This document shows positions 11,695-41,337 of a stretch of 64,000 nt of DNA, in pieces. The DNA lies in contig CAYZVO010000004.1 of assembly GCA_964481655.1 (NCBI GenBank), positions 1,702-65,701 of the forward strand, read 5' to 3'. The notes under the pieces are model-generated. The model saw only the letters and a program-made list of their open reading frames with translations. It ran no database searches and was not told where the DNA came from. Position 1 is the first letter of the stretch; each line of letters opens with the position of its first letter. The stretch comes from an uncultured Enterobacterales bacterium (GTDB taxonomy: Bacteria > Myxococcota_A > UBA796 > JAFGLY01). The position numbers and the translations under genes were made by a program.

Positions 11695-14600
11695 ATGTCG
11701 TGCACCCCGGCACCGGTCCGACCCATGCACATCCTCGCGCTCCCCCTCATCGCCACCCTGCAGGCCGCCACGATCACCGTGGGCTCGGGCTCGAGCTACG
11801 ACCACGCCAGCATCCAGGACGCCATCGACGACGCCAGCGACGGGGACACCATCACGGTGGCCACGGGCACCTACGCCGAGTCCATCGACCTGGCGGGCAA
11901 GGAGCTCACCATCGAGTCCTCGGGCTCCACCTCCCGCACGGTCATCGCGCCGACGGGGAGCTCGCCCGCGATCACGGTGGACCAGGGCGAGAGCGCCGTG
12001 ACGGTCGAGGGCTTCACCATCCAGCCCAGCGGCGGCCGGGCCATCTGGGTCGAGGACTCCAGCCCCTCGTTCGTGGACCTCGCCATCGACAGCGCGGGCA
12101 CGCCGTCCAGCGGTCAAGGCGGCGCCATCTACATCTCCGGCGGCGCCCCCAGCTTCGACCAGCTCGAGGTCTCGGGCAGCCGCGCGGCCTACGGCGGGGA
12201 CCTCTACCTGACCGATCACGCCGACGTGCTGATCACCGACAGCAGCTTCGACAGCTCCCAGGCCACCTTCGGAGGCAGCGTCTGGGCCGAGAACTCCACC
12301 CTCACCCTCATCTCCGTCAGCGCGGTGGACGCGCGCTCCTCCAACTCGGGGGGCTGGGGCTACTTCGACAACGCCGAGCTGTACGCCACGGACCTCGAGC
12401 TCGAGGACCCCAGCGGCGACACCTGCTTCGGCGCCGGGCTGTTCGCCCTGGACCACAGCCACGTGGAGTGGGACGGCGGGGGCGTCAGCGGCGCCGTCGC
12501 GGACGAGTACCGCTCCGGCTACACCGGCGGCGCGGTCCACCTGCGCGGCTCGTCGACCTTCGACGGCACCGACCTGCTCTTCGAGGACAACCTGGCCTAC
12601 GCCGGCGGCGCCATGGACGTGCAGGACAGCGCCAGCGCGACCCTGACGGACTGCAACTTCGACGACAACGAGGCCTACACCAAGGGCGGCGGCCTGCGGG
12701 CCTACGACAGCGGCTCGGCGGCCTGCGACGGCTGCGCCTTCGAGGGCAACGTCGCCGCTGAAGGCGGCGCGGTCGATGTGAGCGTGGACGCCAGCTACAC
12801 GGATCAGGACGGCAGCTACGACGACAACGAGGCCAGCTCCGGCGACGGCGGCGCCGTCCGCGTGGCCGACGACGCCGAGGTCTACATCGAGGGCGCCAGC
12901 TTCGAGGGCAACGCCGCCAGCGAGTCCGGCGGCGCCCTGGCGGTGGAGGACCCGGGCGACGAGGACGTCTACCTGGTCAGCGCTACCTTCACCTCGAACA
13001 CCGCCCAGACCGGCGACGGCGGCGCGGTGGCCATCACCTCCGACGCCAACCTGTGGCTGGATCTGTGCAGCTTCGACCTCAACGAGGCCTCTCTGGGCTG
13101 GGGCGGCGCGGTGGCCTTCGATCCCGACAGCCCGGGCTACACCCTCGAGGCCAGCGACTGCACCTTCGAGGAGAACCAGGCCGACGACGGCGGCGGCGCG
13201 CTGTGGGCCAACGAAGCGGACGAGATCACAGTCCTGGACTCCGCCTTCCTCCGCAACGAGTCGGCCGCTGACGGCGGCGCACTGTACCTCGAGGGCAACG
13301 ACGAGGTGCTGGCCCGCCGCAACCTGTTCCACGAGAACACCGCCGTCTCGGTGGGCGGCGCCTACTACGAGACGGGCACCGCCATCAGCGCCGAGGTCAC
13401 CAACTGCATCTTCTCCGAGAACATGGCGACGCTGGGCGCCGCCGTGGCCCTCGAGGACCAGACCATCCAGATGGAGCTGGTCAACAACAACCTCACCGGC
13501 AACGACGCCACCAGCGACGGCGCCCACCTCTACCTGAGCTCCGCGACCATCAGCTTCGTCAACAACATCGCCACCAACGGCGTGGACGGCGGCGGGCTGT
13601 ACGCGGCGGACAGCGCCTCGGCCTCGGGATCCGACTTCTACTACGACGACGTGTGGTCCAACTCCGGCGGAGACTACACCGGCACCCTGACCGACCCGGT
13701 GGGGACCAGCGGCAACATCTCCGAGGATCCCCAGCTGCGCTCCTACACCCAGGACGGGGACGAGACCAACGACGACCACCACCTGGAGCTCGACAGCCCC
13801 TGCCTGGACCAGGGCGACCCCAGCATCGTCGATCTGGACGGCACCCAGTCGGACATCGGCGTGTACGGCGGCCCCTACGCGGACGGCTCCGACGCCGACG
13901 GCGACGGCTACTGGGACATCACCGACTGCGACGACACCGACCCCACCATCCACCCCGGCGCCGAGGAGACCCCCTACGACGGGATCGACCAGGACTGCGA
14001 CGGGCACGATCTGATCGACGTGGACGGCGACGGCTACGAGGCCCCGGACGTGGGGGGCACCGACTGCGACGACGATGATGCGACCATCTATCCGGGCGCG
14101 CCGGACACCTGGTACGACGGCGTGGACAGCGACTGCGCCGGGGACGACGACTACGATCAGGACGGCGACGGCTACCAGTCCTCCGCCTACGGCGGCCAGG
14201 ACTGCGACGACACCGATCCCAACATCAACCCCGGCGTGCCCGACACCTGGTACGACGGCGTGGACAGCGACTGCGACGGCCACAGCGACTACGACGCCGA
14301 CTACGACGGCCGGGACGACGTCGGCTACGGCGGCGACGACTGCGACGACACCGACGGCAGCATCTACCCCGGCGCCACCGAGATCCCCTACGACGGCCTC
14401 GACCAGGACTGCGACGGCGAAGACATCACCGACGTGGACCAGGACGGCTACGACGCCGAGGTGGTGGGCGGCACCGACTGCGACGACGAGAACGCCGAGG
14501 CCTACCCCGGCGCCCCCGATGACCCCTACGACGGCGTGGACACCGACTGCGACGGCTTCCACGACTACGATCTGGACCACGACGGCTACATCCCGGTCAC

Positions 14601-16857
14601 CTTCGGCGGCGAGGACTGCGACGACACCGACCCGATGATCAGCCCCGAGGCCGACGAGATCTGGTACGACGGCGTGGACCAGGACTGCGACGAGCACAGC
14701 GACTACGACCAGGACTTCGACGGCTGGGACAGCGACCAGTACGGCGGCGAGGACTGCGACGACACCCACGCCGACGCCCACCCCGGCGCCACCGAGATCT
14801 GGTACGACGGCATCGACCAGGCCTGCGACGGCGGCGACGACTACGACCAGGACGGCGACGGCTGGCAGTGGTCGGCCTTCTACGGCCCCGAGGACGACTG
14901 CAACGACGAGAACGCCCACATCCACCCCGGGGCGGTGGAGCAGTTCAACGGGCTGGACGACGACTGCGACGGCTGGACGGAGCTGGACGACCGGGACCAG
15001 GACGGCATGGCCGACTGGTTCGAGTGGATGCACGGCACCGACTACGAGAACCCGGACACCGACGGCGACACCCTGCTGGACGGCGAGGAGATCGACAGCA
15101 CCCTCGACCCCGCTGACACCGACGCGGACACCATCATCGATCCCCTGGACGAGGACGACGACGGAGACGGCATCCCCAGCCGCACCGAGCTGACCACCGA
15201 CGTGGACGACGACCAGATCTGGGACCAGGACGTGGACGGCGACGGCCTGCTCAACTCCGTGGACAAGGACGCCGACGGCGACAGCTACCCCGACCGCACC
15301 GAGGGCACCGAGGATCGGGACCGCGACGGCGTGCCCGACTACCTGGACTACACCGGGGACTACGCCGGAGGCGGCTGCGCGGCCCTCAGCGGCTGCGGCG
15401 GCGGCAACGGCGGCCTGGCCGGCCTGCTGCTGCTCGGCGGCCTGTTCGGCTCCCGGCGCCGGCGTCGGGCCACCATCTGGGCCCCCCTCGCGGGCCTGGG
15501 CCTGCTGCTGGCGCTCGCGCTCCAGCCCGGCGCCGCCACGGCGGCGGAGGACTACGACGCCGTGGACGTGCGCGGGTTCTGGATGGCCGACACCTCCGGC
15601 GATCCCCACCGCCCCGTGCGCCTGGCCTACCCCTCCTCGGGCACCGGCTGGGACGCCGGCCTGCTGGTGGACGCCGCCCGCAATCCCCTGGTCGAGGTCA
15701 TGCCCGACGGCCGCGAGGCCATCGTCGACCTGATGACCAGCGCCCACGCCTTCGGCGGCATCTCCTGGCGGGGAATGCGCTTCGACATGGCGGTGCCGGT
15801 CACCCTCTACGGGCACGATCTGGCGGGCGGCTTCGCCGCCATGGGCGACCTGCGGGCCGGGATGCACGGGCCCGCCGTGGCCCCCCGGGGCAGCGGCCCC
15901 GGGGGGGGTGTGGCCGCCTGGGGCTGGCTGCCCACCGGAGGCGAGGCCCGCTGGTCCGGCAGCCCCGGGGCCGCCGCGGGCGCCGTGGCGACGGTGGCCC
16001 AGGAGATCGGCCCCATCGGCTGGACCGTCAACGCCGGCGTGCGCGTGGCCCGCGCCGACGACGCCCGCAACATCCGCTCCGGGCCCGGCCCCCTGGGGGG
16101 CGCGGACCTGCACTACAGCGTCACCGACGCCCTCGCCGGGGGCGTCGGCGCCGTGGTCCAGGGCACCACCGGCTGGAGCTCCTGGCCCCTCGTGGCCGAC
16201 GCCCGGGTCCGCTACCGGGTCCGCGGTGGCGGCTTCGCCATCGCCGGCCTGGCCACCGGCATCACCGACGGCGTCGGCGCCGCGGGAGCGCGGGCCTACG
16301 CCGGCGTCGGCTACGGCCGGCGGCGCTCGGACTGGAGCCCCGCGATCATCGAGGCGCCCGTGCCCACCCTGATCCACGAGGTCACGGTCCAGCCCGGTGA
16401 GCTGCCGCTGGTGGAGCAGCCCCTGGCCTTCCTGGCCGAGGACCGCATCGTGGTCGGCGAGCAGATCTTCTTCCGCGAGGCCCGCACCGCGATCCTGCCG
16501 GAGAGCGAAGAGGTGCTCGAGGCCGTCCGCGACGTGCTGATGGAGCATCCCGAGGTCACCTGGCTGCTGGTGGAGGGACACACCAACTCCCGCGGCAGCG
16601 AGGGCTACAACCTCGAGCTGTCCGAGGGCCGCGCCCAGGCCGTGGTCGACTGGCTGGTGGCCCACGGCGTCCCCTCCGAGCGCCTGCTGGCCAAGGGCCA
16701 CGGCGAGAACCAGCCCCTGCTCGAGGACAACCACCCCGACGCCATGGTGGTCAACCGCCGGGTGGAGTTCCTGGTCCTGCGCTCGGACGAGACCCCGGAC
16801 GACGTGGTGCGCCCGGACCAGAACGCCGTCCCCGATGAGGCGTGGAAGGATCGATAG
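11695..16857 (+). CDS. giant secreted repeat protein: Pmp-type parallel beta-helix, 8 MopE-like Cys/Asp repeats, TSP3-like Ca-binding repeats, internal MYXO-CTERM-like segment, C-terminal OmpA domain
   Basis: Signal-like MHILALPLIATLQA (alternative ATG 11725). Repeated FxxN...GGA(L/V) units. Eight copies of DCDDxDxxIxPGAxExxYDGxDxDCDG. DxDxDG runs. GGGCAALSGCGGGNGGLAGLLLLGGLFGSRRRRR. The C-terminus LLVEGHTNSRGSEGYNLELSEGRAQAV...NRRVEFLV matches the OmpA_C signature. Confidence 0.8.
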   Translation: MSCTPAPVRPMHILALPLIATLQAATITVGSGSSYDHASIQDAIDDASDGDTITVATGTYAESIDLAGKELTIESSGSTSRTVIAPTGSSPAITVDQGESAVTVEGFTIQPSGGRAIWVEDSSPSFVDLAIDSAGTPSSGQGGAIYISGGAPSFDQLEVSGSRAAYGGDLYLTDHADVLITDSSFDSSQATFGGSVWAENSTLTLISVSAVDARSSNSGGWGYFDNAELYATDLELEDPSGDTCFGAGLFALDHSHVEWDGGGVSGAVADEYRSGYTGGAVHLRGSSTFDGTDLLFEDNLAYAGGAMDVQDSASATLTDCNFDDNEAYTKGGGLRAYDSGSAACDGCAFEGNVAAEGGAVDVSVDASYTDQDGSYDDNEASSGDGGAVRVADDAEVYIEGASFEGNAASESGGALAVEDPGDEDVYLVSATFTSNTAQTGDGGAVAITSDANLWLDLCSFDLNEASLGWGGAVAFDPDSPGYTLEASDCTFEENQADDGGGALWANEADEITVLDSAFLRNESAADGGALYLEGNDEVLARRNLFHENTAVSVGGAYYETGTAISAEVTNCIFSENMATLGAAVALEDQTIQMELVNNNLTGNDATSDGAHLYLSSATISFVNNIATNGVDGGGLYAADSASASGSDFYYDDVWSNSGGDYTGTLTDPVGTSGNISEDPQLRSYTQDGDETNDDHHLELDSPCLDQGDPSIVDLDGTQSDIGVYGGPYADGSDADGDGYWDITDCDDTDPTIHPGAEETPYDGIDQDCDGHDLIDVDGDGYEAPDVGGTDCDDDDATIYPGAPDTWYDGVDSDCAGDDDYDQDGDGYQSSAYGGQDCDDTDPNINPGVPDTWYDGVDSDCDGHSDYDADYDGRDDVGYGGDDCDDTDGSIYPGATEIPYDGLDQDCDGEDITDVDQDGYDAEVVGGTDCDDENAEAYPGAPDDPYDGVDTDCDGFHDYDLDHDGYIPVTFGGEDCDDTDPMISPEADEIWYDGVDQDCDEHSDYDQDFDGWDSDQYGGEDCDDTHADAHPGATEIWYDGIDQACDGGDDYDQDGDGWQWSAFYGPEDDCNDENAHIHPGAVEQFNGLDDDCDGWTELDDRDQDGMADWFEWMHGTDYENPDTDGDTLLDGEEIDSTLDPADTDADTIIDPLDEDDDGDGIPSRTELTTDVDDDQIWDQDVDGDGLLNSVDKDADGDSYPDRTEGTEDRDRDGVPDYLDYTGDYAGGGCAALSGCGGGNGGLAGLLLLGGLFGSRRRRRATIWAPLAGLGLLLALALQPGAATAAEDYDAVDVRGFWMADTSGDPHRPVRLAYPSSGTGWDAGLLVDAARNPLVEVMPDGREAIVDLMTSAHAFGGISWRGMRFDMAVPVTLYGHDLAGGFAAMGDLRAGMHGPAVAPRGSGPGGGVAAWGWLPTGGEARWSGSPGAAAGAVATVAQEIGPIGWTVNAGVRVARADDARNIRSGPGPLGGADLHYSVTDALAGGVGAVVQGTTGWSSWPLVADARVRYRVRGGGFAIAGLATGITDGVGAAGARAYAGVGYGRRRSDWSPAIIEAPVPTLIHEVTVQPGELPLVEQPLAFLAEDRIVVGEQIFFREARTAILPESEEVLEAVRDVLMEHPEVTWLLVEGHTNSRGSEGYNLELSEGRAQAVVDWLVAHGVPSERLLAKGHGENQPLLEDNHPDAMVVNRRVEFLVLRSDETPDDVVRPDQNAVPDEAWKDR
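13890..14975 (+). repeat. coding tandem array of 8 MopE-like putative metal-binding repeats (~38-40 aa each)
   Basis: ITDCDDTDPTIHPGA, GTDCDDDDATIYPGA, GQDCDDTDPNINPGV, GDDCDDTDGSIYPGA, GTDCDDENAEAYPGA, GEDCDDTDPMISPEA, GEDCDDTHADAHPGA, EDDCNDENAHIHPGA. Each is followed by YDGxDxDCDG. Confidence 0.8.
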
Positions 16858-16937: not shown

Positions 16938-17831
16938 ATGCTCTCCTGGACCAAAGCCGGGGCCGTCAAGCGGCCCCCCCCCCTGCAGATCCGCGTGCAG
17001 CGCCGCTACCCGGACCGGGTGCGCGCGGGGGCTCCCCTGCCCACCCGCAGCCTGTCCCGGGCCGAGCTGCTCGCCAACCTGCGGCACTTCACCGAGGGCA
17101 AGCGGGGCCCGCGCACCGCGCCCTGCACCACCCTGGTGCTCTCGGGGGTCGGGCTGCTGGCCTCGCCGGACACCGCGCCGGTGCTCGAGGCCGCTCGCGA
17201 GCTCGGCATCGAGCACGTGGTGCTGCACGCTGGCACCGAGGACCTGGCCGGCTTCGACGCCGCCCCCTGGAGCGCGCTGGTGGACGTCCTGGTGGTCCCC
17301 CTGCAGCCGGGCCGGGGCGACGCGCTGCTGGAGCATGGCGCGCGAGCGGTCGCCGCCTGTCGGGAGGCGGGCATCGAGGTGGCCGCCAACACCGTGCTCC
17401 GCGCCGAGGCGGTAGACGCCCTGACAGCCCTCGTCGGCCTGGTGCAGCGCCTCGCCCCCCACAGCCTGACCCTGTCCTACCCCTTCCCCAGCGGCGGTCC
17501 CCAGCCCGCCCCGCCTCACCCTCGGGCGCTGCTGCCTGCGCTGCAGCGGGCCGTGGAACAGCTCGAGGCGGCCGGAGCCGACCCACGGCTCAAGGGCCTG
17601 CCCGCCTGCTGGCTGGGTCCCCTCGCCCACCGCCTCCGCCCGTCGTCCAACCGCTGGTACGTCGACGCCGATCACCAACTGGACGGCGCGCTGCTGTTCT
17701 TCCCGGACGTGCTGGCCTTCCACAAGGGCGACGCCTGCCGCTTCTGCGTCAGCGACGGACGCTGCGACGGCTTCTTCGCCGCCTGGCTGCGCCAGCCGGG
17801 CTTCCCCGGGCTGGAGCCGATGGACGCCTGA
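16938..17831 (+). CDS. hypothetical protein, possibly a radical-SAM/SPASM-derived fold lacking the CxxxCxxC triad
   Basis: High GC3. LVLSGVGLLASPDTAPVLEAARELGIEHVVLHAG resembles the GGEP/TIM-barrel core. The C-terminal CRFCVSDGRCDG is Cys-rich. No N-terminal Cys triad. Confidence 0.45.
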   Translation: MLSWTKAGAVKRPPPLQIRVQRRYPDRVRAGAPLPTRSLSRAELLANLRHFTEGKRGPRTAPCTTLVLSGVGLLASPDTAPVLEAARELGIEHVVLHAGTEDLAGFDAAPWSALVDVLVVPLQPGRGDALLEHGARAVAACREAGIEVAANTVLRAEAVDALTALVGLVQRLAPHSLTLSYPFPSGGPQPAPPHPRALLPALQRAVEQLEAAGADPRLKGLPACWLGPLAHRLRPSSNRWYVDADHQLDGALLFFPDVLAFHKGDACRFCVSDGRCDGFFAAWLRQPGFPGLEPMDA

Positions 17832-26492: not shown

Positions 26493-27413
26493 TCACTCAT
26501 CCACCTTCGCAGGCTTGAGCCGCACCAGCACGCCATCCTCCCGCGCCAGCTTGCGCAGGGCGAGCATGTCGATCTCCGAGAGGTTGTTCAGGATCCCCTC
26601 GACCTGGCCGGTGCTGCCGTCGAGCTTGGCCACCAGCTCCCGGGCCTCGCCCATGGCGAGGGAGGCCTCGTCCACCAGACCCGGGGCCTGCTCGGCGGCG
26701 TCGGCCAGGGAGCCCGCGGCGCGCTCGAGCTCGCCCAGCAGGGTGTCGCCCCGCGCCAGCATGGGCTCGAGCTCGGCTGAGACCCGGCGCAGATCGGCGA
26801 CAGCCTGGCGGCCCTCGGTGACCAGGGCCGGGGCCTGCTCGCTGGCGACGCGCAGGTTGTGGAGCATGGCCTCGGTGTCGGCCAGCATACGCTCCACGCG
26901 CTCTGGGTCCTCGGCCAGGGCGTCGGACAGCACGCCCATCAGCTCAGCCATCTGCTCGGCGTCCATGGCGGCCACCAGGGGCCCCATGCCGTTGACCATC
27001 TCGTCGATCTCCATCTGGCCTTCGGTGACGACGATCCGGTCGCCTTCCGCCAGCAGAGTGCCCTTCGAGGGACCCGGCAGCAGCTGCACGTACTTCTCAC
27101 CCAGCACCGAGCGGGCGCGGATGGCGGCCCGGGTGTCCCGGGGGACCTGCAGCTCCTCGTCGATCAGCAGCTCCATCCAGGCCTGGTTGTCCTGGACCCA
27201 GATGCGCTCGACGGAGCCCACGTCCACGCCGGCCACCGAGACCACGGCGCCCTCGACCACGCCGCCGGCGTTGTCGAACACGGCCTGGACCCGGTAGGTG
27301 CCCGCCTGCATCCGGAAGGCCCCGACCTGGACCGCCAGGTAGGCCAGGATGAGCAAGGCCACCAACAGCAGCACGCCCACGGCGAGCTCGTGCTTGCGGT
27401 TGCGGGCGCTCAC
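26493..27413 (-). CDS. mlaD: MlaD/MCE-domain substrate-binding protein with long helical C-terminal extension
   Basis: GTG start at 27413 overlapping the mlaF stop (GTGA). N-terminal TM helix ELAVGVLLLVALLILAYLAV. MCE core YRVQAVFDNAGGVVEGAVVSVAGVDVGSV. Confidence 0.8.
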   Translation of the reverse strand: MSARNRKHELAVGVLLLVALLILAYLAVQVGAFRMQAGTYRVQAVFDNAGGVVEGAVVSVAGVDVGSVERIWVQDNQAWMELLIDEELQVPRDTRAAIRARSVLGEKYVQLLPGPSKGTLLAEGDRIVVTEGQMEIDEMVNGMGPLVAAMDAEQMAELMGVLSDALAEDPERVERMLADTEAMLHNLRVASEQAPALVTEGRQAVADLRRVSAELEPMLARGDTLLGELERAAGSLADAAEQAPGLVDEASLAMGEARELVAKLDGSTGQVEGILNNLSEIDMLALRKLAREDGVLVRLKPAKVDE

Positions 27414-28216
27414 GAGCCGGCCCTCGCGCCCGGGGCCGTGAGGCCCGCGAGCCAGGCGGTGTCGAGGTTGCGGCGCAGGAAGTTCTTCACGATCGGGTCG
27501 GTGGAGGCGAGCACCTGGCGGGTGGGCCCGAACTCCACGAGGCGGCCCTCGTATAGCATCCCGATGTGGTCCGCGACCTTGACCGTCCCGACGATGTCGT
27601 GGCTGATGACCACGAAGGTGATGCCCAGGCGGCGCTTCATGTCGATGATCAGCTGGTCGATGGCCTCGGAGGTCAGCGGATCGAGCCCGGAGTTGGGCTC
27701 GTCGAAGAGGATGATCTCGGGCTCCATGACGATGGCCCGCGCCAGCCCCACCCGCTTGCGCTGCCCCCCAGACAGCGAGGCGATGCCGCGACCGGAGAAG
27801 CCCGGCAGCCCCACCCACTCCAGCTTCTCGTCCACCAGGCGCTGGCGCTCGGTGGGGCCCAGAGCCTTGCGGTGGTGCTCGAGGGGGAAGCCGACGTTCT
27901 GCCCGACGGTCAACGAGTCGAACAGGGCGCCGTCCTGGAAGAGCATCCCCATGCGCCGCCGCAGGGCGTAGAGCTGGCGCTCCGAGGCGGCGGCCACGTC
28001 CTGGCCGAAGACCCGCACGGCGCCGCGGTCCGGCCGCAGCAGGCCGATGATGTGCTTGAGCAGCACCGACTTGCCCGTGCCGGACGCCCCGATGATGGCG
28101 GTGGTCTCGCCCGCGGGGATGCCGAGGCTGATGTCGTGGAGCACCTGGGTCTCGCCGAAGGACTTGTAGACGCCCTCCAGCTCGATCACGGGCGCAGGCG
28201 CGCTGGCCCTATCCAT
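27410..28216 (-). CDS. mlaF: ABC transporter ATP-binding protein, MlaF type
   Basis: GASGTGKSVLLKHI (Walker A), LSGGQRKRVGLARAI (signature), ILFDEPNSGLD (Walker B). Confidence 0.9.
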   Translation of the reverse strand: MDRASAPAPVIELEGVYKSFGETQVLHDISLGIPAGETTAIIGASGTGKSVLLKHIIGLLRPDRGAVRVFGQDVAAASERQLYALRRRMGMLFQDGALFDSLTVGQNVGFPLEHHRKALGPTERQRLVDEKLEWVGLPGFSGRGIASLSGGQRKRVGLARAIVMEPEIILFDEPNSGLDPLTSEAIDQLIIDMKRRLGITFVVISHDIVGTVKVADHIGMLYEGRLVEFGPTRQVLASTDPIVKNFLRRNLDTAWLAGLTAPGARAGS

Positions 28217-28949
28217 AGAACAGCTCCGACATGAAGTAGTTGAGGAAGACCACCACCACGCTCACGGTGACCACGGCGCCGTTGGTGGCCTTGCCCACAC
28301 CCTCGGGGCCGCGGCCGGCCTCGAAGCCGAAGAAGCAGGCCACCAGCGCGATGATGATCCCGAACACCAGGCCCTTGGTCATGCAGTACAGGAAGTCCAC
28401 GCCCTGGATGCCCTCGCGGGCGAACTCGAGGAAGACCGCGCCGTTGAGGCCCAGCTGCCAGATGGTGACCAGGTAGGCGCTGCACAGCGTGGCGAAGATC
28501 GCGACGATGGTCAGGGCCGGCAGCACGAGCACGATGCCCGCCAGCCGCGGCAGGATCAGGTACCACATGGGGTTGACCGCCATGGCCTCGAGGGCGTCGA
28601 TCTGCTCGCGGATGCGCATGACCGCGATGTGGGAGGCCATCTCGGTGCCGGCCTTGGCGGCGATCATGGCCGCGGCGATGACCGGCGCCATCTCGCGGAT
28701 CCCGGCGGTGGAGACGAACATGCCCACCAGCCGCGAGCCGCCGAGGGGCGCGAAGGCGTTGTAGCCCTGCAGGGCCAGGTTGGTGCCCACGAAGGCCGAG
28801 ATGATCAGCAGCACCGGCAGGCTCTTGACCCCGATCCGGTAGGCCTCGGCCATCACCATGCCGGGGGGAGGCGGACGCCGCCACGACGCCCGCGCGAAGG
28901 CTCCCAGGAAGAGCCCGAAGCGGCCGATGCCGGTGATGAAGGCGATCAT
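28209..28949 (-). CDS. mlaE: MlaE/YrbE-family ABC permease (copy 2)
   Basis: Start trimmed to MIAFITGIG (ATG 28949, ATGA overlap with the upstream gene). MRIREQIDALEAMAVNP and C-terminal GPEGVGKATNGAVV are typical of MlaE. Confidence 0.8.
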   Translation of the reverse strand: MIAFITGIGRFGLFLGAFARASWRRPPPPGMVMAEAYRIGVKSLPVLLIISAFVGTNLALQGYNAFAPLGGSRLVGMFVSTAGIREMAPVIAAAMIAAKAGTEMASHIAVMRIREQIDALEAMAVNPMWYLILPRLAGIVLVLPALTIVAIFATLCSAYLVTIWQLGLNGAVFLEFAREGIQGVDFLYCMTKGLVFGIIIALVACFFGFEAGRGPEGVGKATNGAVVTVSVVVVFLNYFMSELFYG

Positions 28950-29695
28950 CCGACGCTCCCGAAGAACGCCGAGGTGAGCAGGTAGTTCGCCGCGATGAAG
29001 ATCAGGATGGTGTAGACGACGGTGTCGTTGACAGCCCGGCCCACACCCGCCGCGCCGCCCCGGGTGTGGTAGCCCAGGTAGCAGCCGACCACGCCGATGA
29101 GGGCGCCGAAGACCGTGGTCTTGATGACCGTGCCCCACACGTCCGCGGGGCCGGTGAGGTTCCACAGCTCGGCCATGAAGATGCCGTGGGCCTCACCCTT
29201 CATGAGCACCGCCGTGATCCAGCCGCCGACGATACCCGAGACGCAGCCCATCAGGTTGAGCACCGGGCAGGCGATGGTCAGGGCCAGCACCCGCGGCGCC
29301 GCGTGGAAGGCCAGGCTGTCCACGCCCATGACGTCGGTGGCGTCCAGCTCTTCCTTGATGCGCATGGCGCCCAGCTCCGCGGCGAAGGAGGCGCCGCCCT
29401 GGGCCGCGACCAGGGTGCTGGCCATCACCGGGGACAGCTCGCGGATGATGGCGGCGGCCACGAAGGGTGAGAGCAGGCGCTGGCTGCCGTACATGGCGAA
29501 GATCTCGAGGCCCTGCAGCGACATGACCATGCCGAAGGGGAAGACCACCGCGATGACCGGCAGCATGCAGCGCATGATGACCGTGTCGAGCTGCGCCAGG
29601 AAGCTGCGCAGGGGGACGCGCAGGGTCACCGTGGCCCACGCCACCCGGGCTGCGAAGATGCCGATGCGGCCCATCAGCTCGAGCGTAGCGACCAT
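28946..29695 (-). CDS. MlaE/YrbE-family ABC permease (copy 1, paralogue)
   Basis: Start trimmed to MVATLELMGRIG (ATG 29695). MRIKEELDATDVMGVD and GAAGVGRAVNDTVV. Confidence 0.8.
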   Translation of the reverse strand: MVATLELMGRIGIFAARVAWATVTLRVPLRSFLAQLDTVIMRCMLPVIAVVFPFGMVMSLQGLEIFAMYGSQRLLSPFVAAAIIRELSPVMASTLVAAQGGASFAAELGAMRIKEELDATDVMGVDSLAFHAAPRVLALTIACPVLNLMGCVSGIVGGWITAVLMKGEAHGIFMAELWNLTGPADVWGTVIKTTVFGALIGVVGCYLGYHTRGGAAGVGRAVNDTVVYTILIFIAANYLLTSAFFGSVG

Positions 29696-29792
29696 CCTTC
29701 CTCGCGGCGGACGCGACCATGGGCGGTCACGCAGGCCCGCTCCGGTTAATCCCCCGGCTCGACCCGGGCGAGCCAGCCCGACCGGAGCTCCC

Positions 29793-30170
29793 ATGTCCCG
29801 TCACGCCATCATCACCCTCCTCTTCTCCGCGCTGCTGATCCCCTCCGTCGCCCAGGCCGAGGACGCCTGGATCCTCGAGGACATCGAGGCCCTGCGCTGG
29901 CCCGACGCCGAGCAGGTCTCCGTGGTGCTCGAGCCCGGTGACAAGGTCACCGTGGTCTACAAGGCCGACGGCATGGTGCGCGTGCGCAAGGGCGCCGAGT
30001 TCGGCTGGGTGCCCGAGGCCAAGCTGGGCGACAGCGATCCCAGCCCCGCGGCCGCCGAGGACGATCCCTGGGCCATCCCGGACATGCCCACCCTGGACAT
30101 CCCGGGCCTGGACGCCGAGCCCGCCGCCGAGCCCGCCCCGGAAGCCGCGCCCGAAGCGCCGGCGGAGTAG
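29793..30170 (+). CDS. small secreted protein, SH3-like core plus Pro/Ala/Glu-rich tail
   Basis: ATG 29793. Signal MSRHAIITLLFSALLIPSVAQA. GDKVTVVYKADGMVRVRKGAEFGWVPEAKL resembles bacterial SH3. Confidence 0.55.
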   Translation: MSRHAIITLLFSALLIPSVAQAEDAWILEDIEALRWPDAEQVSVVLEPGDKVTVVYKADGMVRVRKGAEFGWVPEAKLGDSDPSPAAAEDDPWAIPDMPTLDIPGLDAEPAAEPAPEAAPEAPAE

Positions 30171-36508: not shown

Positions 36509-39500
36509 CTAGTGGAAGTCCCGGCTCCGGGGTGAGACGTCCGGGGCCTGCTCGAGCTCGGCGACGTGGTAGGCGACGAGGCTCAGGGCCTCGTTCTCGC
36601 GCTGCAGCTTGCCGCGGATGACCACCAGGGTCGCGGTGCGCACGATGCGGCGCTGCCGCTGGTAGAGCTTGGGCCAGATGACCACGTTGAGCTGACCGGT
36701 CTCGTCCTCGAGGGTCAGGAACACCACCCCCGAGGCGGTGCCGGGCCGCTGCCGGCACGAGATGAGCCCCGCGACCCGCACGACCCGCCCGGCCTTGACC
36801 TCGGACAGCGCGGCCACCGGGTGCACGCCCTCGCGCTCGAGGCGGGCACGCTCGAGGCCGATGGGGTGCTGGTGCACGCTCAGGCCCACCGCCGCATAGT
36901 CCGACTCCAGGCGCTCGCGAGCGGTGGCCTCGGGCAGCTGGGGTGGTGGAGACCGGCGGGAGATGCCCGCGAACAGCGGGTTGTCCCACAGCCCCGCCAC
37001 GGCCCACAGGGCATGGCGCCGGGACAGGCCCAGGGCCTGGAAGGCGTCGGCCCGGGCCAGCAGCTCGAGGGCGGCCCGGGGGAGCTGGCTGCGGGCGGCC
37101 AGATCGTTCAGGTCGCGGAAGCGGTCTTCGGCCCGGGCCCGTTCGAGCTGCTCGGCCCACTGCTGGCCGAAGCCCCGGATCAGCCGCAGCCCCAGCCGGA
37201 CCGCGGGCTGGTCCGGGTCGTCGCTGGAAGGCTCCAGGCTGCAGTCCCAGCTGGACCGGGTGGCGTCGATGGGGCGCACCTCGACGTCGTGGCGCTGCAC
37301 ATCGGCCACCAGAGCCCTCGGGGTGTAGAAGCCCATGGGCTGGCTGTTGATCAGCGCCGCGCAGAAGGCCGCCGGGTAGTGGTGCTTGAGCCAACAGGAG
37401 ACGTAGACCAGCAGGGCGAAGGAGGCGGCGTGGGACTCGGGGAAGCCGTACTCGCCGAAGCCCTTGATCTGTTCCACCATGCGATCGGCGTAGGTTCCGG
37501 TGATGCCGTTGGCCTCGAGGCCCTTGCGGAACTCCTCGGCGATGGGCCCCAGGGCGCCCTTGCGGCGCCAGGCGGCCATGGAGCGCCGCAGGCGGTCGGC
37601 CTGGCCCGCCGAGAAGCCCGCCACCGCCATGGCCGCCGCCATGACCTGCTCCTGGAAGATGGGCACCCCCAGGGTGCGCTCGAGGATGGGCTCGAGGGCC
37701 GGGTGGGGGTAGCGCACGGGCTCGAGCCCCTGGCGGCGCTTCAGGTAGGGGTGCACCATGCCCCCCTGGATGGGGCCGGGGCGCACGATGGCCACCTCGA
37801 TGACCAGATCGTAGAAACAGCGGGGGCGCAGCCGGGGCAGCATGGACATCTGGGCCCGGCTCTCGATCTGGAACACGCCGACCGTGTCGGCACGACAGAT
37901 CATGTCGTAGACAGCGGGATCCTCGGCGGGGACCGAGGCCAGGGTCCAGCGCCGCCCCCAGGGGGGCGTGGGGTGGGGTGGTGACTCATCACCCGGGCCG
38001 GCGGGGGTGGTGAACTGGCGGGCGTCGGCGGGATCGTCGGGGATGGCGCCGTGGGGGGCGAAACCGGAGACCAGGTCGAAGGCCTTGCGGATGGCGGTGA
38101 GCATCCCCAGCGACAGCAGATCGACCTTGACGAAGCCCACGTCGTCGATGTCGTCCTTGTCCCACTGGATGACCGTGCGACCCTGCATGGTGGCGGGCTC
38201 GATGGGCACCCGGCCGCTCAGGTCGTCGTCGGTGAGCACGAAGCCCCCGACGTGGATGCCCACATGGCGCGGGAAGCCCCTCAGCTCGCCGGACAGCTCG
38301 ACCGTGAGCTTCACCCGGTCCTCGGCGGGATCGAGGCCGGCGGCCTGGAGCTGATCGTCGGTGATGGGCTCCCGGCCCCAGTAGTCGGCCTGGCGGGCCA
38401 TGGCGTCGATCTGGTCGAGGCCCAGGCCCAGGGCCTTGCCCACGTCGCGCACGGCGGAGCGGCGCCGGTAGGCGATGACCTCGTTGACCATGGCGGCCCG
38501 GTGGCGGCCGTATTTTTCATAGAGGTATTGGATGAGCTCCTCGCGCCGCTCGTGCTCGAAGTCCACGTCGATGTCGGGGGGCTCGCCCCGCTCGGCGCTG
38601 ATGAAGCGCTCGAAGAGCAGGGTGGAGCGCGAGGGGTCCACCGCCGTGATCCCCAGAGCGAAGCAGACCGCGCTGTTGGCCGCCGAGCCCCGGCCCTGGC
38701 AGAGGATGCCCCGGGAGCGGGCGAACTGCACGGCGTCGTGGACGGTGAGGAAGTAGGCGGCGAAGCCCAGCTGCTCGATGATGCCCAGCTCGTGGTCGAC
38801 CTGGGCCTGGACCGTCGCGGGGACCCCCGCGGGGTAGCGCTCCGCCAGGCCCTGGCGCACCAGCTGCACGAGCCAGGACATGGGGCTGTGGCCGTCGGGC
38901 ACCACCTCGCGGGGGTAGCGGTAGTCCAGCTGGGCCAGGGAGAAGCTGTGCTCGGCGGCGATGGCGGCGCTGGTGCGCACCGCGTCGGCGAGGCGCCCCG
39001 GCGCGTCACCCCCGATGGCGCGCCCCACAGCCTGGAAGAGGGCGTGGGCCTGGGCTGGGGAGCGCAGCACCCGGGCGGCGTTGGGGGCCAGGGCGCGCCC
39101 GGCCGCGTCGATGGTTGTGCGGCGGCGGATGCAGGTGATCACGTCCAACAGGCGCTTGCGATCCGGGTGGTGCTGCTGCACGTCGCCCACCGCGACCAGA
39201 GGCAAGCCGGCCCAGCGGGCCAGGCGCAGGCTGGCGCCGATGTGCGCGGCATCGCCCGGCTGGAGGGCGCAGCTGACCGCCAGGGCGATGCGATCGCCGA
39301 AGGCCTCTCGCAGGGGCGAGAGCTGGGCCACGGACCAGGGCCCGTGCAGCAAGGCGGTGAGGCCGGTGGCGTGCTCGAGCAGATCGGGCAGCTGGTGCAG
39401 GGCCTGACCCTTGGGCTGATCCCGACGGCCGATGGTGAGCAGTCGGCAGAGGCTGGCCCAGCCGGCGCGATCCCGCACCAGCACCACGACGCTGGGGAGG

Positions 39501-39724
39501 TCCTGCAGGGTGAGCAGCGCGCCGACCACCAGCTTCACCCCGTGCTCACGGGCCGCCCGGTGGGCCCGAACCATGCCGTAGACACCGTCGCGATCGGTGA
39601 TGGCGACGGACGACAGGCCCAGCTCGGCGGCCTGGGCGACCAGCTCTTCGGGCGACGAGGCCCCCTCGAGGAACGAGAAGTAGGAGCGGCAGAACAGCTC
39701 GGCGTAGGGGGGCGGCGCGCTCAC
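36509..39724 (-). CDS. dnaE2: error-prone DNA polymerase III alpha-like subunit DnaE2 (ImuC)
   Basis: GTG start at 39724 overlapping the imuB stop (GTGA). N-terminus YAELFCRSYFSFLEGASSPEELV (PHP domain). 1071 aa. Co-located with imuB. Confidence 0.9.
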   Translation of the reverse strand: MSAPPPYAELFCRSYFSFLEGASSPEELVAQAAELGLSSVAITDRDGVYGMVRAHRAAREHGVKLVVGALLTLQDLPSVVVLVRDRAGWASLCRLLTIGRRDQPKGQALHQLPDLLEHATGLTALLHGPWSVAQLSPLREAFGDRIALAVSCALQPGDAAHIGASLRLARWAGLPLVAVGDVQQHHPDRKRLLDVITCIRRRTTIDAAGRALAPNAARVLRSPAQAHALFQAVGRAIGGDAPGRLADAVRTSAAIAAEHSFSLAQLDYRYPREVVPDGHSPMSWLVQLVRQGLAERYPAGVPATVQAQVDHELGIIEQLGFAAYFLTVHDAVQFARSRGILCQGRGSAANSAVCFALGITAVDPSRSTLLFERFISAERGEPPDIDVDFEHERREELIQYLYEKYGRHRAAMVNEVIAYRRRSAVRDVGKALGLGLDQIDAMARQADYWGREPITDDQLQAAGLDPAEDRVKLTVELSGELRGFPRHVGIHVGGFVLTDDDLSGRVPIEPATMQGRTVIQWDKDDIDDVGFVKVDLLSLGMLTAIRKAFDLVSGFAPHGAIPDDPADARQFTTPAGPGDESPPHPTPPWGRRWTLASVPAEDPAVYDMICRADTVGVFQIESRAQMSMLPRLRPRCFYDLVIEVAIVRPGPIQGGMVHPYLKRRQGLEPVRYPHPALEPILERTLGVPIFQEQVMAAAMAVAGFSAGQADRLRRSMAAWRRKGALGPIAEEFRKGLEANGITGTYADRMVEQIKGFGEYGFPESHAASFALLVYVSCWLKHHYPAAFCAALINSQPMGFYTPRALVADVQRHDVEVRPIDATRSSWDCSLEPSSDDPDQPAVRLGLRLIRGFGQQWAEQLERARAEDRFRDLNDLAARSQLPRAALELLARADAFQALGLSRRHALWAVAGLWDNPLFAGISRRSPPPQLPEATARERLESDYAAVGLSVHQHPIGLERARLEREGVHPVAALSEVKAGRVVRVAGLISCRQRPGTASGVVFLTLEDETGQLNVVIWPKLYQRQRRIVRTATLVVIRGKLQRENEALSLVAYHVAELEQAPDVSPRSRDFH

Positions 39725-41337
39725 GCGGACACCGCGGGGGTGGGGGAGCCCTGGTCGAAGAGGCCGTGCAGGAAGGCGTGCCCGAGCTCGCGGAAGACCC
39801 ACAGCCCGCGGCCGTCCTGCAGCTCGAGGGACCAGTAGCGGCGGTCGAGCCCGGCGGCCCACCACTCGACGTTGAGCAGCTCGGGCCCCCAGCAGCGCCG
39901 CACCGGCAGCCAGCGACCCTCGAGCTGGACCCGCCGCGGTGGGCCGAGGCGTGGCTCGAGCTGCACGGGCTTGGGCTCGGACAGCATCAAGGCCGGGCGC
40001 GGCAGGGGCAGGGAGAAGCGCCAGGCTTCGTGGGGCCAGGCCGGGTCCAGGTCCTTGGCGCCCTGCTTGGTGGAGGCGGGGGGCGCAGCCTGGGCGGCCT
40101 GCTGGAGGCCGGGCTCCACGAAGCGGCCCTGCGCGTCGAAGCTGGAGCCAGGGGCCCAGGCGGCCTCGGGTCGCCAGCGATCCCGGGGCTGGGGGGTGAA
40201 CATGGCCGCCGGCCCGAGGCTGTCGGCCAGCCGCGCGGCGACACCGGCCAGGGACTCGAGGGGCTCGCCCCCGGCGAGCAGGGGGGCCTGCGCCCCCGCG
40301 AAGGGGACCGGGCTGAGCTCCAGGGTCAGGCCGAGCACCGGGGCCGCCAGCTGCAGGCCCTCGAGGCGGCGGCGCAGCAGGCGGACGAGGCGCTCGGGAT
40401 CGCGCACGGGGCGGCCTGTGCGCAGGGAGAGGCGCAAGCTGCCGGCGTCCTCGAGGGTCAGGATCAGCACCAGGCCCACCAGGCCCTGGGCCCCCGCCTC
40501 GAGCTGCGCGCAGAGATCCCCGCAGAGCCGCTTGAGCACGAACAGCAGCGGCTCGACGGCGCTGACGGGGGCCGGGAGCTCCCAGCCGACGCGCATGCGC
40601 TCACCCTCGACCCGCGCGGCCATGGGCAGGCTGCCCAGCCCCCCGCGGGCCAGGCGCTGCAGGCGCACGGCTTCGGCCCCGAAGCGACCCGCCACATCGG
40701 CCGGCGCGAGGACGGCCAGCTCCCCCACCCGACGCAGGCCGAGATCATGCAGCAGCCGGGCGAGACGCGGGCTGGGCTCGAGGGCGCGCAGGGGCAGCGG
40801 AGCCAGGGCCTGGGCAAGACCGGCGGGGGGGACCACCACATCGCGGGGGGCCCAAGCCGCCAGCACCCGCGCGGCGAAGAGATCATCGGCGATCACGACC
40901 CGCGCGTCGTGCCCCAGCAGCTGCAGGCGGTCGGCCGCCCCGGCCAGCAGCGCGGGCTCGGGCGTGGGTGGGCGCGCGCCACCGCCGGGGGGGACCAGCT
41001 CGGCCGCCAGGCCGTCGGGGGGCAGCGGCGCCACGGCGGGGGCGAAGCGCGACAGCTGCCAGGCGAGCTCGGCGAGATCCAGGGACTCGTCATCGGGCTC
41101 GAGCAGCTCGATGGCCAGATCCGGCAGCAGGGCGCGGGCCGCCGCCAGGGTCATGCCGTGCTCGATGCCGGCCCGTGCAGCGCGCGAGGTGCAGGCCTGC
41201 ACCCGCAGGGCGCTCTTCTGTTCGGCCACCAGCACCACGGCCTGGCGCGGATCCCAGCCGCAACGGTCCAGCCGGAAGCCCGGCAGGTGGCAGACCAGGT
41301 AGCGGGGCCCTGTGGCCGCGGGTGGTGAGGGACTCAT
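39721..41337 (-). CDS. imuB: ImuB, Y-family-polymerase-like mutasome protein
   Basis: N-terminus RYLVCHLPGFRLDRCGW...EHGMTLAAARALLPDL is typical of ImuB. Translationally coupled to dnaE2. Confidence 0.8.
   Translation of the reverse strand: MSPSPPAATGPRYLVCHLPGFRLDRCGWDPRQAVVLVAEQKSALRVQACTSRAARAGIEHGMTLAAARALLPDLAIELLEPDDESLDLAELAWQLSRFAPAVAPLPPDGLAAELVPPGGGARPPTPEPALLAGAADRLQLLGHDARVVIADDLFAARVLAAWAPRDVVVPPAGLAQALAPLPLRALEPSPRLARLLHDLGLRRVGELAVLAPADVAGRFGAEAVRLQRLARGGLGSLPMAARVEGERMRVGWELPAPVSAVEPLLFVLKRLCGDLCAQLEAGAQGLVGLVLILTLEDAGSLRLSLRTGRPVRDPERLVRLLRRRLEGLQLAAPVLGLTLELSPVPFAGAQAPLLAGGEPLESLAGVAARLADSLGPAAMFTPQPRDRWRPEAAWAPGSSFDAQGRFVEPGLQQAAQAAPPASTKQGAKDLDPAWPHEAWRFSLPLPRPALMLSEPKPVQLEPRLGPPRRVQLEGRWLPVRRCWGPELLNVEWWAAGLDRRYWSLELQDGRGLWVFRELGHAFLHGLFDQGSPTPAVSA

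Follow-up and report, generated by a model that had tools for sequence, protein, structure and literature searches.

The 64,000-nucleotide stretch of DNA analysed here (the window; contig CAYZVO010000004.1 of assembly GCA_964481655.1, from an uncultured myxobacterium) carries a gene that joins, in a single open reading frame (ORF), a large beta-helix adhesin, an internal sorting tag of MYXO-CTERM-like layout, a second signal-peptide-like segment, and a C-terminal part composed of a predicted outer-membrane beta-barrel and an OmpA domain. Comparison with orthologous sequences indicates that the gene fusion is real and conserved, and not an artefact. We think it likely that the gene encodes a TraA/TraB-like pair in one polypeptide, a tagged surface adhesin and a partner made of signal peptide, barrel and OmpA domain, and that this polypeptide is cut into two. 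The layout itself is no new kind of system, since it has already been described for the protein MXAN_5598. What appears to be new is that most members of an uncultured clade have the fused form, that fused and split orthologues interconvert, and that a cleavable-looking signal peptide is kept right after the tag.

The features of the gene are the following (window coordinates; a slash marks a predicted cleavage site).

11695..16857 (+): whole fused ORF, 1720 aa counted from the first ATG; G+C at third codon positions (GC3) 0.97
11725..11766 (+): N-terminal signal peptide MHILALPLIATLQA/A, short and uncharged (judged from the sequence; the same short form is kept in L010, L012, L018, L019, L022, P0031 and P0037-P0044)
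11767..13890 (+): right-handed beta-helix/PMP-repeat passenger, the adhesin head (Pfam Beta_helix 5.5e-23, Chlam_PMP 9.8e-15; NCBIfam POMP_repeat)
13891..14991 (+): stalk of eight Cys-rich MopE-type repeats (Pfam Cu-binding_MopE 1e-59, eight stretches; positions by regular expression)
14992..15366 (+): Asp-rich TSP3-like region ending in the conserved motif ...PDYLDYTGDYA (judged from the sequence)
15367..15468 (+): internal MYXO-CTERM-like tag with GGGC...GC motif, helix and Arg cluster (TIGR03901 11.6 bits, cutoff 20)
15412-15450 (+): short hydrophobic helix of the tag, GLAGLLLLGGLFG (13 residues)
15454-15468 (+): Arg cluster of the tag, RRRRR
15469..15543 (+): second signal-peptide-like segment ATIWAPLAGLGLLLALALQPGAATA, with a small-x-small site immediately ahead of the conserved mature N-terminus in every fused or split relative
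between 15543 and 15544 (+): predicted signal peptidase I site ATA/AE, the preceding RRRRR serving as n-region
15544..16338 (+): outer-membrane beta-barrel domain of about 12-13 strands, distantly TraB-barrel-like (AlphaFold2 (AF2) model, Foldseek, profile A2)
16339..16440 (+): low-confidence linker without TSP3 repeats (predicted local distance difference test (pLDDT) below 50, module residues 286-316)
16441..16788 (+): OmpA-type peptidoglycan-binding domain (Pfam OmpA 1.1e-17, residues 1592-1688)

In frame, positions 15364-15545 read A-GGGCAALSGCGGGNGGLAGLLLLGGLFGSRRRRR-ATIWAPLAGLGLLLALALQPGAATA-AE, with zero stop codons, and 436 residues follow. The translation thus bears out the original prediction, which had described a read-through from a Gly/Cys motif through a helix and an Arg cluster into a signal-peptide-like segment, with about 430 more residues behind it. 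The G+C content of the window is about 72 per cent, and in this region only the ORF 11695..16857 (+) has a coding-type codon-position G+C pattern. The length of 1720 aa originally given for the protein holds when it is counted from the first ATG; because the N-termini of relatives (including P0031) begin at the position equivalent to Met-11 (ATG 11725), this codon is probably the true start, giving 1710 aa. Throughout the family the signal peptides are unusually short and without a charged n-region (e.g. MLILALPLIASLQA/A and MIAALLGAALA/SEP), as seen at the N-termini of the window protein, of L010, L012, L018, L019 and L022, and of P0031-P0049. This form is common to adhesins and split barrel genes alike.

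Relatives were collected in two ways. A homologue search with the junction and the C-terminal part as query returned seven close homologues (39-52% identity), the DNA contexts of which were read in all frames, and a scan of GTDB with one genome per species gave 19 loci, 18 of which are informative. The 19 loci come from metagenome-assembled genomes, whose labels are Myxococcota or Deltaproteobacteria with some generic or implausible exceptions (such as 'uncultured Enterobacterales'). The relatives are 35-84% identical to the window gene. The fused form is found at 15 of the 18 informative species loci and the split form at three (L013, L023 and L024). All four of the closest relatives, L009-L012 (79-84% identity), carry the fused form, and their junction indels relative to the window are frame-preserving; P0003 and L005 likewise have a single in-frame ORF. 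One otherwise colinear fused orthologue, L016, has an in-frame TAA within its MopE repeats (codon 535, frame 1, nt 1603-1605), which could mark a pseudogene or an assembly error.

The two-gene form was also met in the homologue search (L001, L003/L004 and L008). In all six of these split lineages the adhesin ends in ...GGGC, a transmembrane (TM) segment and RRRR followed directly by a stop codon, which overlaps the next gene by 4 bp (ATGA or GTGA), and this second gene encodes its own short signal peptide, the barrel and the OmpA domain. The upstream gene in L001, L003/L004 and L008 is colinear with the window adhesin and has a true C-terminal tag (e.g. ...GGGCSTAPTGQTRSMLWLLGLLLLGRRRGEGA, then the stop). 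Terminal tags are present in the split orthologues L001, L003, L008, L013, L023, L024 and L028. A Met exactly at the would-be start of the split gene is retained in some fused members (L005, RRRDEP-M; L022/L025, RRKR-M), and a one-base indel at the ATGA overlap would suffice to convert one form into the other. Orthologues thus come in two states, a single ORF or a pair of overlapping genes, and the idea of a natural fusion of an adhesin gene with an OmpA gene is borne out; the C-terminal part, which had been said to resemble a complete stand-alone OmpA-family protein, is indeed a separate gene with its own signal peptide in the split relatives.

In a neighbour-joining tree of the barrel-OmpA module, split forms appear at at least three separate places among the fused ones, and several transitions between the two states must have occurred. 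Fusion and fission are equally parsimonious on this tree. Such repeated, neutral-looking interconversion suggests that fused and split genes end in the same pair of mature proteins; this is the strongest argument to that effect, although an indirect one.

The tag of the window protein has the signature of the MYXO-CTERM family in its invariant Cys in a Gly-rich context (GGGCAALSGCGGG, 15367-15405), with GGGC at the same position in all relatives, and in its hydrophobic helix followed by a short Arg-rich cluster (GLAGLLLLGGLFG and RRRRR). It does not stand at the extreme C-terminus, as 462 residues come after it. The curated cutoffs of the hidden Markov models (HMMs) are 20 bits for TIGR03901 and 15.85 bits for TIGR03382. 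Homologous tags, both internal and terminal, exceed the TIGR03901 cutoff in four relatives:

L008, terminal tag: TIGR03901 21.3 bits, TIGR03382 17.3 bits
P0003, internal tag: TIGR03901 22.0 bits, below the TIGR03382 cutoff
P0013, internal tag: TIGR03901 22.1 bits, below the TIGR03382 cutoff
L005, internal tag: TIGR03901 28.1 bits, TIGR03382 21.9 bits

The window tag carries an insertion with a second Cys (AALSGCGGGNGG), which probably lowers its HMM score. We treat it as a divergent MYXO-CTERM in the homologous position, neither above the HMM cutoffs nor at the C-terminus. The layout originally proposed was correct as regards the Gly/Cys motif, the helix and the Arg cluster, and the HMMs recognize it in several relatives, but not in the window's own copy. 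A scan of the window by regular expression for other ORFs with a MYXO-CTERM tail gave two implausible matches only. In L006 (138-140) and L007, two independent metagenome contigs of identical sequence, an in-frame TAG lies within the tag, which reads GGGGCGGG (stop) SSAAGFLLLL...RRRGWA-VLGL...ALAQ. The corresponding codon is GAG (Glu) in P0035, of the same lineage but from another sample, and the residue is Gln, presumably CAG, in the fused L018. Such a TAG would fit a nonsense allele of a fused gene, or else a case of stop read-through; a nonsense allele would leave the adhesin without an anchor and the barrel gene without a proper start.

Behind the Arg cluster, the fused members have 14-35 residues with a short hydrophobic core and a small-x-small site (ATA/A, ALA/D, AQA/A, AHA/Q, ALA/Q, FAG/G and others), which lead into the conserved mature N-terminus [VLI]D[AV][RH]G... 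Several have a minimal arrangement, for example LLRRKR-MLGLLLLSGTSFAG/G, and thus the Arg cluster of the tag also serves the signal peptide as n-region. In split relatives, the segment homologous to ATIWAPLAGLGLLLALALQPGAATA is the N-terminal signal peptide of the separate second gene. This, together with the conserved small-x-small site, agrees with the earlier description of the second segment as signal-peptide-like with an AxA site. More than 20 independent lineages show, at a constant position, this succession of Cys motif, TM segment, Arg cluster and short hydrophobic segment with small-x-small site, which argues that the pattern is not due to chance. P0056 (1317 aa) has a single hydrophobic segment and no Arg cluster between Cys motif and barrel (residues ~870-910, GGGGGCQGGSQSGGLLFLALLLLRPAKA/EDADM).

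In the AF2 model, about 13 beta-strands occupy module residues 59-286; a disordered linker follows, and then an alpha/beta domain of the OmpA type. In Foldseek searches against the PDB, the barrel matched the 12-stranded barrels of FapF (target-normalized TM-score (TMt) 0.55-0.66) and of the COG4313 channel 4rl8 (0.66), and the C-terminal domain matched the peptidoglycan-binding domains of OmpA, Pal and OprF (28-36% identity). The best NCBIfam match of the module is TraB (NF033763), which covers the OmpA part only (profile positions 379-509) with 101.8-105.8 bits; membership of TraB was rejected, because the full-length cutoff of 700 bits is not reached. The general architecture of TraB (signal peptide, N-terminal barrel, C-terminal OmpA) is nevertheless present, as judged from the AF2 model, the fold matches, Pfam OmpA and the signal-peptide-like segment. 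In an exhaustive search with a barrel-only profile built on the window (A2), 1423 representatives came up at E<=1e-3. Four of these family members (P0115, P0060, P0130 and P0046), when searched with their barrel segments alone, match positions 5-314 of the TraB HMM with E-values from 1e-7 to 7e-10, and match nothing else significantly (E<=0.01). No named TraB was among the results of a homologue search that started from P0046. The module is thus best described as TraB-like in architecture and, on these profile matches, as probably, in a transitive way, a distant homologue of TraB, not as TraB itself. Many family members, among them P0038, P0039, P0042 and P0046, have a Cys-containing linker of the TSP3 type (...DGFxDxDGCPE...) between barrel and OmpA, like TraB; the subfamily of the window has a short, non-repetitive linker (16339-16440) in its place.

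Among the best 150 of the 1423 barrel matches, the barrel lies far from the N-terminus in 21, and of the 22 fused representatives (these 21 and P0013), 21 have the full junction of Cys motif, TM segment, Arg cluster and signal peptide. The full junction is found with unrelated passengers: DUF3494/Ice_binding in P0013, a beta-helix without MopE repeats in P0050, different Asp-rich N-terminal regions in P0115 and P0146, and 3448 aa of repeats in P0130. The numerous barrel-OmpA homologues that stand alone can likewise have a MYXO-CTERM adhesin gene directly ahead of them. In L028 an upstream MopE protein ends in ...GGGCGTGWAGAMTPGLLLLAMRRRP and a stop codon 46 nt ahead of the barrel gene, and a 1407-aa gene lies 24 nt upstream of P0042. 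Taken with the fused forms, this adjacency suggests that a MYXO-CTERM adhesin and a barrel-OmpA partner form a recurrent module, encoded by one gene or two. In L002 (6001-9497), the fused gene of P0013 (DUF3494(Ice_binding), tag, signal peptide, barrel and OmpA) has a second, stand-alone Ice_binding gene immediately behind it and two Ser/Thr kinase genes upstream.

The processing that we propose would run as follows. The N-terminal signal peptide would direct the adhesin into the Sec pathway until the hydrophobic helix of the tag halts transfer, the RRRRR cluster remaining cytoplasmic. The second hydrophobic segment, with the Arg cluster as its n-region, would then restart translocation and bring the barrel-OmpA part to the periplasm. 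A signal peptidase I cut after ATA would free this part for insertion by the beta-barrel assembly machinery and for binding to the wall. The conserved Cys would be lipidated and the tag cut by a myxosortase (MrtX), leaving a small hairpin peptide in the membrane. The end products would be the same two proteins as those of the translationally coupled split genes, in a fixed 1:1 ratio, with a putative function in adhesion or outer-membrane contact.

Several points weigh against this proposal. Both cleavages are predictions; the signal peptidase site was judged by eye and by conservation, and the window tag scores below both cutoffs (9.2-11.6 bits for TIGR03901 and 10.9-12.6 bits for TIGR03382). 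The myxosortase would have to accept a tag trailed by a second membrane segment. The scan of window ORFs brought up no myxosortase or type II secretion system (T2SS) gene. Confidence in the AF2 model is no more than moderate (mean pLDDT 65, strands 70-80, from an 8-sequence alignment), and the window's own barrel has no match to the TraB HMM, so that homology is transitive. Finally, P0056 lacks the second hydrophobic segment, and a hairpin with two cuts leaves the route of its barrel to the periplasm unexplained.

Some of these points would suit an uncleaved protein, held in the inner membrane by a hairpin with both large domains in the periplasm and tied to the wall by the OmpA domain. Two hydrophobic segments around an Arg cluster are a classic positive-inside hairpin, the two cleavages are predictions, and the window tag lies below the HMM cutoff. 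We nevertheless regard this as unlikely, and the permanent helical hairpin of the original prediction, linking a surface module to a wall anchor, is accordingly less likely than processing: orthologues produce the two halves as separate proteins, and a barrel of the outer-membrane type, probably related to that of TraB, must leave the inner membrane, since it cannot insert in the outer membrane while tethered there. The second segment, moreover, is short, with often 10-14 hydrophobic residues, and has a small-x-small site at its end in every case; these are typical features of a cleaved signal peptide, not of a stable TM helix. About equally improbable, in our estimate, is that processing proceeds as proposed but the barrel, instead of being a TraB-like partner of a lipoprotein exported by the T2SS, serves its own adhesin as a dedicated translocon or dock in the outer membrane, an analogue of autotransporters, two-partner systems or FapF; the adhesin would then pass through the barrel or sit in it. 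A beta-helix with PMP repeats is typical of type V passengers, the model of about 12 strands comes nearest to the polypeptide transporter FapF, and adhesin and barrel are always genetically linked. Yet that similarity is moderate (TMt ~0.6) on a moderate-confidence model, and there is no Pfam Autotransporter (PF03797) or POTRA domain. The hydrophobic stop-transfer helix and RRRRR between passenger and barrel are incompatible with classical type Va export, and the second signal peptide in the same place and the OmpA domain after the barrel also depart from it. MYXO-CTERM proteins of M. xanthus are proposed to reach the surface through the T2SS (PMC11980579).

Two products might also arise from the single ORF without proteolysis, by internal initiation or reinitiation at the second signal peptide, and the Met at the start of this segment in some fused relatives (L005, L022/L025) would suit this. 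It is very improbable for the window gene: between 15364 and 15561 the frame contains neither ATG nor GTG nor TTG, so that a downstream module with its signal peptide could not be translated from a conventional internal start, and most fused relatives also lack such a codon at the right place. Least credible of all is that a sequencing or assembly error, a pseudogene or a recent loss of a stop codon joined two genes in this genome alone. Two-gene relatives with a 4-bp overlap are indeed one indel away from fusion, but the fusion recurs in 15 of 18 independent species-level assemblies and in many metagenome contigs, at 35-84% identity, with intact domains and frame-preserving indels. The comparative loci thus refute this reading, and exclude the assembly artefact that had first been considered. 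The lost stop codon, also suggested at first, holds in an evolutionary sense; it is not private to the window genome. The comparison of orthologues that had been proposed as a check (one gene or two) gave both states, not a uniform single ORF, and several tags of relatives lie above the MYXO-CTERM cutoff, so neither observation that would have spoken against the original prediction was made.

The proposed TraA/TraB-like pair may be compared with the known one. The genes traA and traB overlap by 4 bases; TraA combines Cys-rich repeats with a MYXO-CTERM, and TraB has an OmpA domain (PMC3325183). TraB consists of a signal peptide, an outer-membrane barrel, a TSP3 linker and OmpA, and forms a 1:1 complex with TraA (PMC12045341). 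The window family is similar in its adhesin with Cys-rich stalk and MYXO-CTERM followed by a signal peptide-barrel-OmpA partner, in the 4-base overlap of the split relatives and, through other family members, in a barrel that is probably a distant homologue. It differs in that its head is made of a beta-helix with PMP repeats, where TraA has a PA14-like variable domain, its repeats are of the MopE type, not TIGR04201, and it is one ORF in a subfamily without a TSP3 linker; any role in membrane exchange would be hypothetical. MrtX, the myxosortase, cleaves MYXO-CTERM; the Cys is proposed to be lipidated and display on the surface to depend on the T2SS (PMC11980579).

The closest described case is MXAN_5598 of M. 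xanthus, which has an internal MYXO-CTERM and which the authors read as a fusion of two genes resembling TraA and TraB (PMC11980579, mBio 2025). They propose, with no experiment given there, that its N-terminal part is processed. By the published description it resembles the window gene in its large N-terminal adhesin, internal MYXO-CTERM and C-terminal barrel and OmpA in one ORF. It differs in location, sitting in a cell-division cluster beside ftsA and ftsZ; neither fts genes nor CPBP/MrtX genes were found among the window ORFs scanned. Such cases are termed rare or atypical in PMC11980579, whereas fusion prevails in the uncultured clade studied here. The published passage on MXAN_5598 makes no mention of a second signal peptide, and split orthologues do not appear in the paper; both are described here for the window family. 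What appears there as a single case in M. xanthus would thus be the common state in some uncultured lineages.

The family has a wider interest, as sorting tags of the sortase, exosortase and myxosortase type are regarded as strictly C-terminal, and internal ones escape automated annotation, for example the window copy with its score below the HMM cutoff. It is also a natural experiment, in which orthologous adhesin/barrel pairs switch repeatedly between one gene and two overlapping genes. This switching argues that the internal MYXO-CTERM and the internal signal peptide are functional, and that adhesin and barrel-OmpA partner act together 1:1, like TraA and TraB. The family offers compact, testable substrates for myxosortase and signal peptidase. 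We would suggest only tentatively, as possible rather than probable, that the fused proteins are true envelope polyproteins, cut during or after translocation by two different membrane proteases, myxosortase (at the lipidated Cys) and signal peptidase I (at an internal signal peptide that shares the Arg cluster of the tag), and that they belong to a large uncharted TraAB-like superfamily in uncultured Myxococcota, the heads of which (beta-helix, DUF3494, giant TSP3 arrays) can be exchanged. If so, TraAB-like pairs might serve in recognition between cells or in contact of outer membranes far outside the TraAB system of Myxococcus.

Parallels outside this group are more distant. An ArtA substrate of Haloferax volcanii with a tripartite tag that is not at its C terminus is reportedly still processed. 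The likeness lies in a sortase-type tripartite sorting signal within a protein; the system differs in being archaeal, with an archaeosortase/PGF-type signal and a Tat substrate, and we know of no second signal peptide or barrel partner for it. The FbcH cytochrome b/c1 precursor of Bradyrhizobium is a membrane polyprotein split at an internal signal-peptide-like sequence, which yields two functional proteins. It is a mechanistic parallel for internal signal peptidase cleavage only, the proteins and the pathway being unrelated and without a sorting tag. A literature search for precedents of bacterial internal signal peptides turned up nothing usable.

The adhesin half matches only POMP_repeat, NosD/beta-helix and Pfam MopE models. 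The beta-helix and MopE-like modules of the original prediction were thus recovered (Beta_helix and Chlam_PMP, and eight MopE stretches by Pfam); in the Asp-rich stretch Pfam detected no TSP3 at E<=0.01, and the region, which is colinear and conserved in all relatives, is TSP3-like at most. Neither a PA14-like variable domain nor TIGR04201 Cys-rich repeats, the features of TraA, were met in the adhesin part; membership of TraA was rejected, as the HMMs fail.

The surroundings of the fused gene in the window are of an ordinary chromosomal kind, with genes for PCMT, an AMP-binding enzyme, a sigma-54 activator, Usp, a helicase, Mla components, a DnaE-type polymerase and APS kinase. Of the relatives, only the closest have in common with the window the PCMT gene on its flank and the downstream gene of 297 aa. 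The latter (16938-17831, +), directly downstream of the fused gene, has no Pfam or NCBIfam family, and its synteny is limited to L009-L012 (66-78% identity). At 27410-29794 (-), an MlaF-like ABC ATPase precedes a pair of adjacent paralogues of the MlaE permease (Pfam MlaE ~1e-62 for each); a tandem duplication of a lipid-transport permease is unusual. At 36509-41337 (-), a DnaE-type DNA polymerase III alpha gene (1118 aa) adjoins an ORF of 538 aa without a family match, which overlaps an antisense ORF of similar length. This region could be an error-prone cassette of the dnaE2/imuB type.

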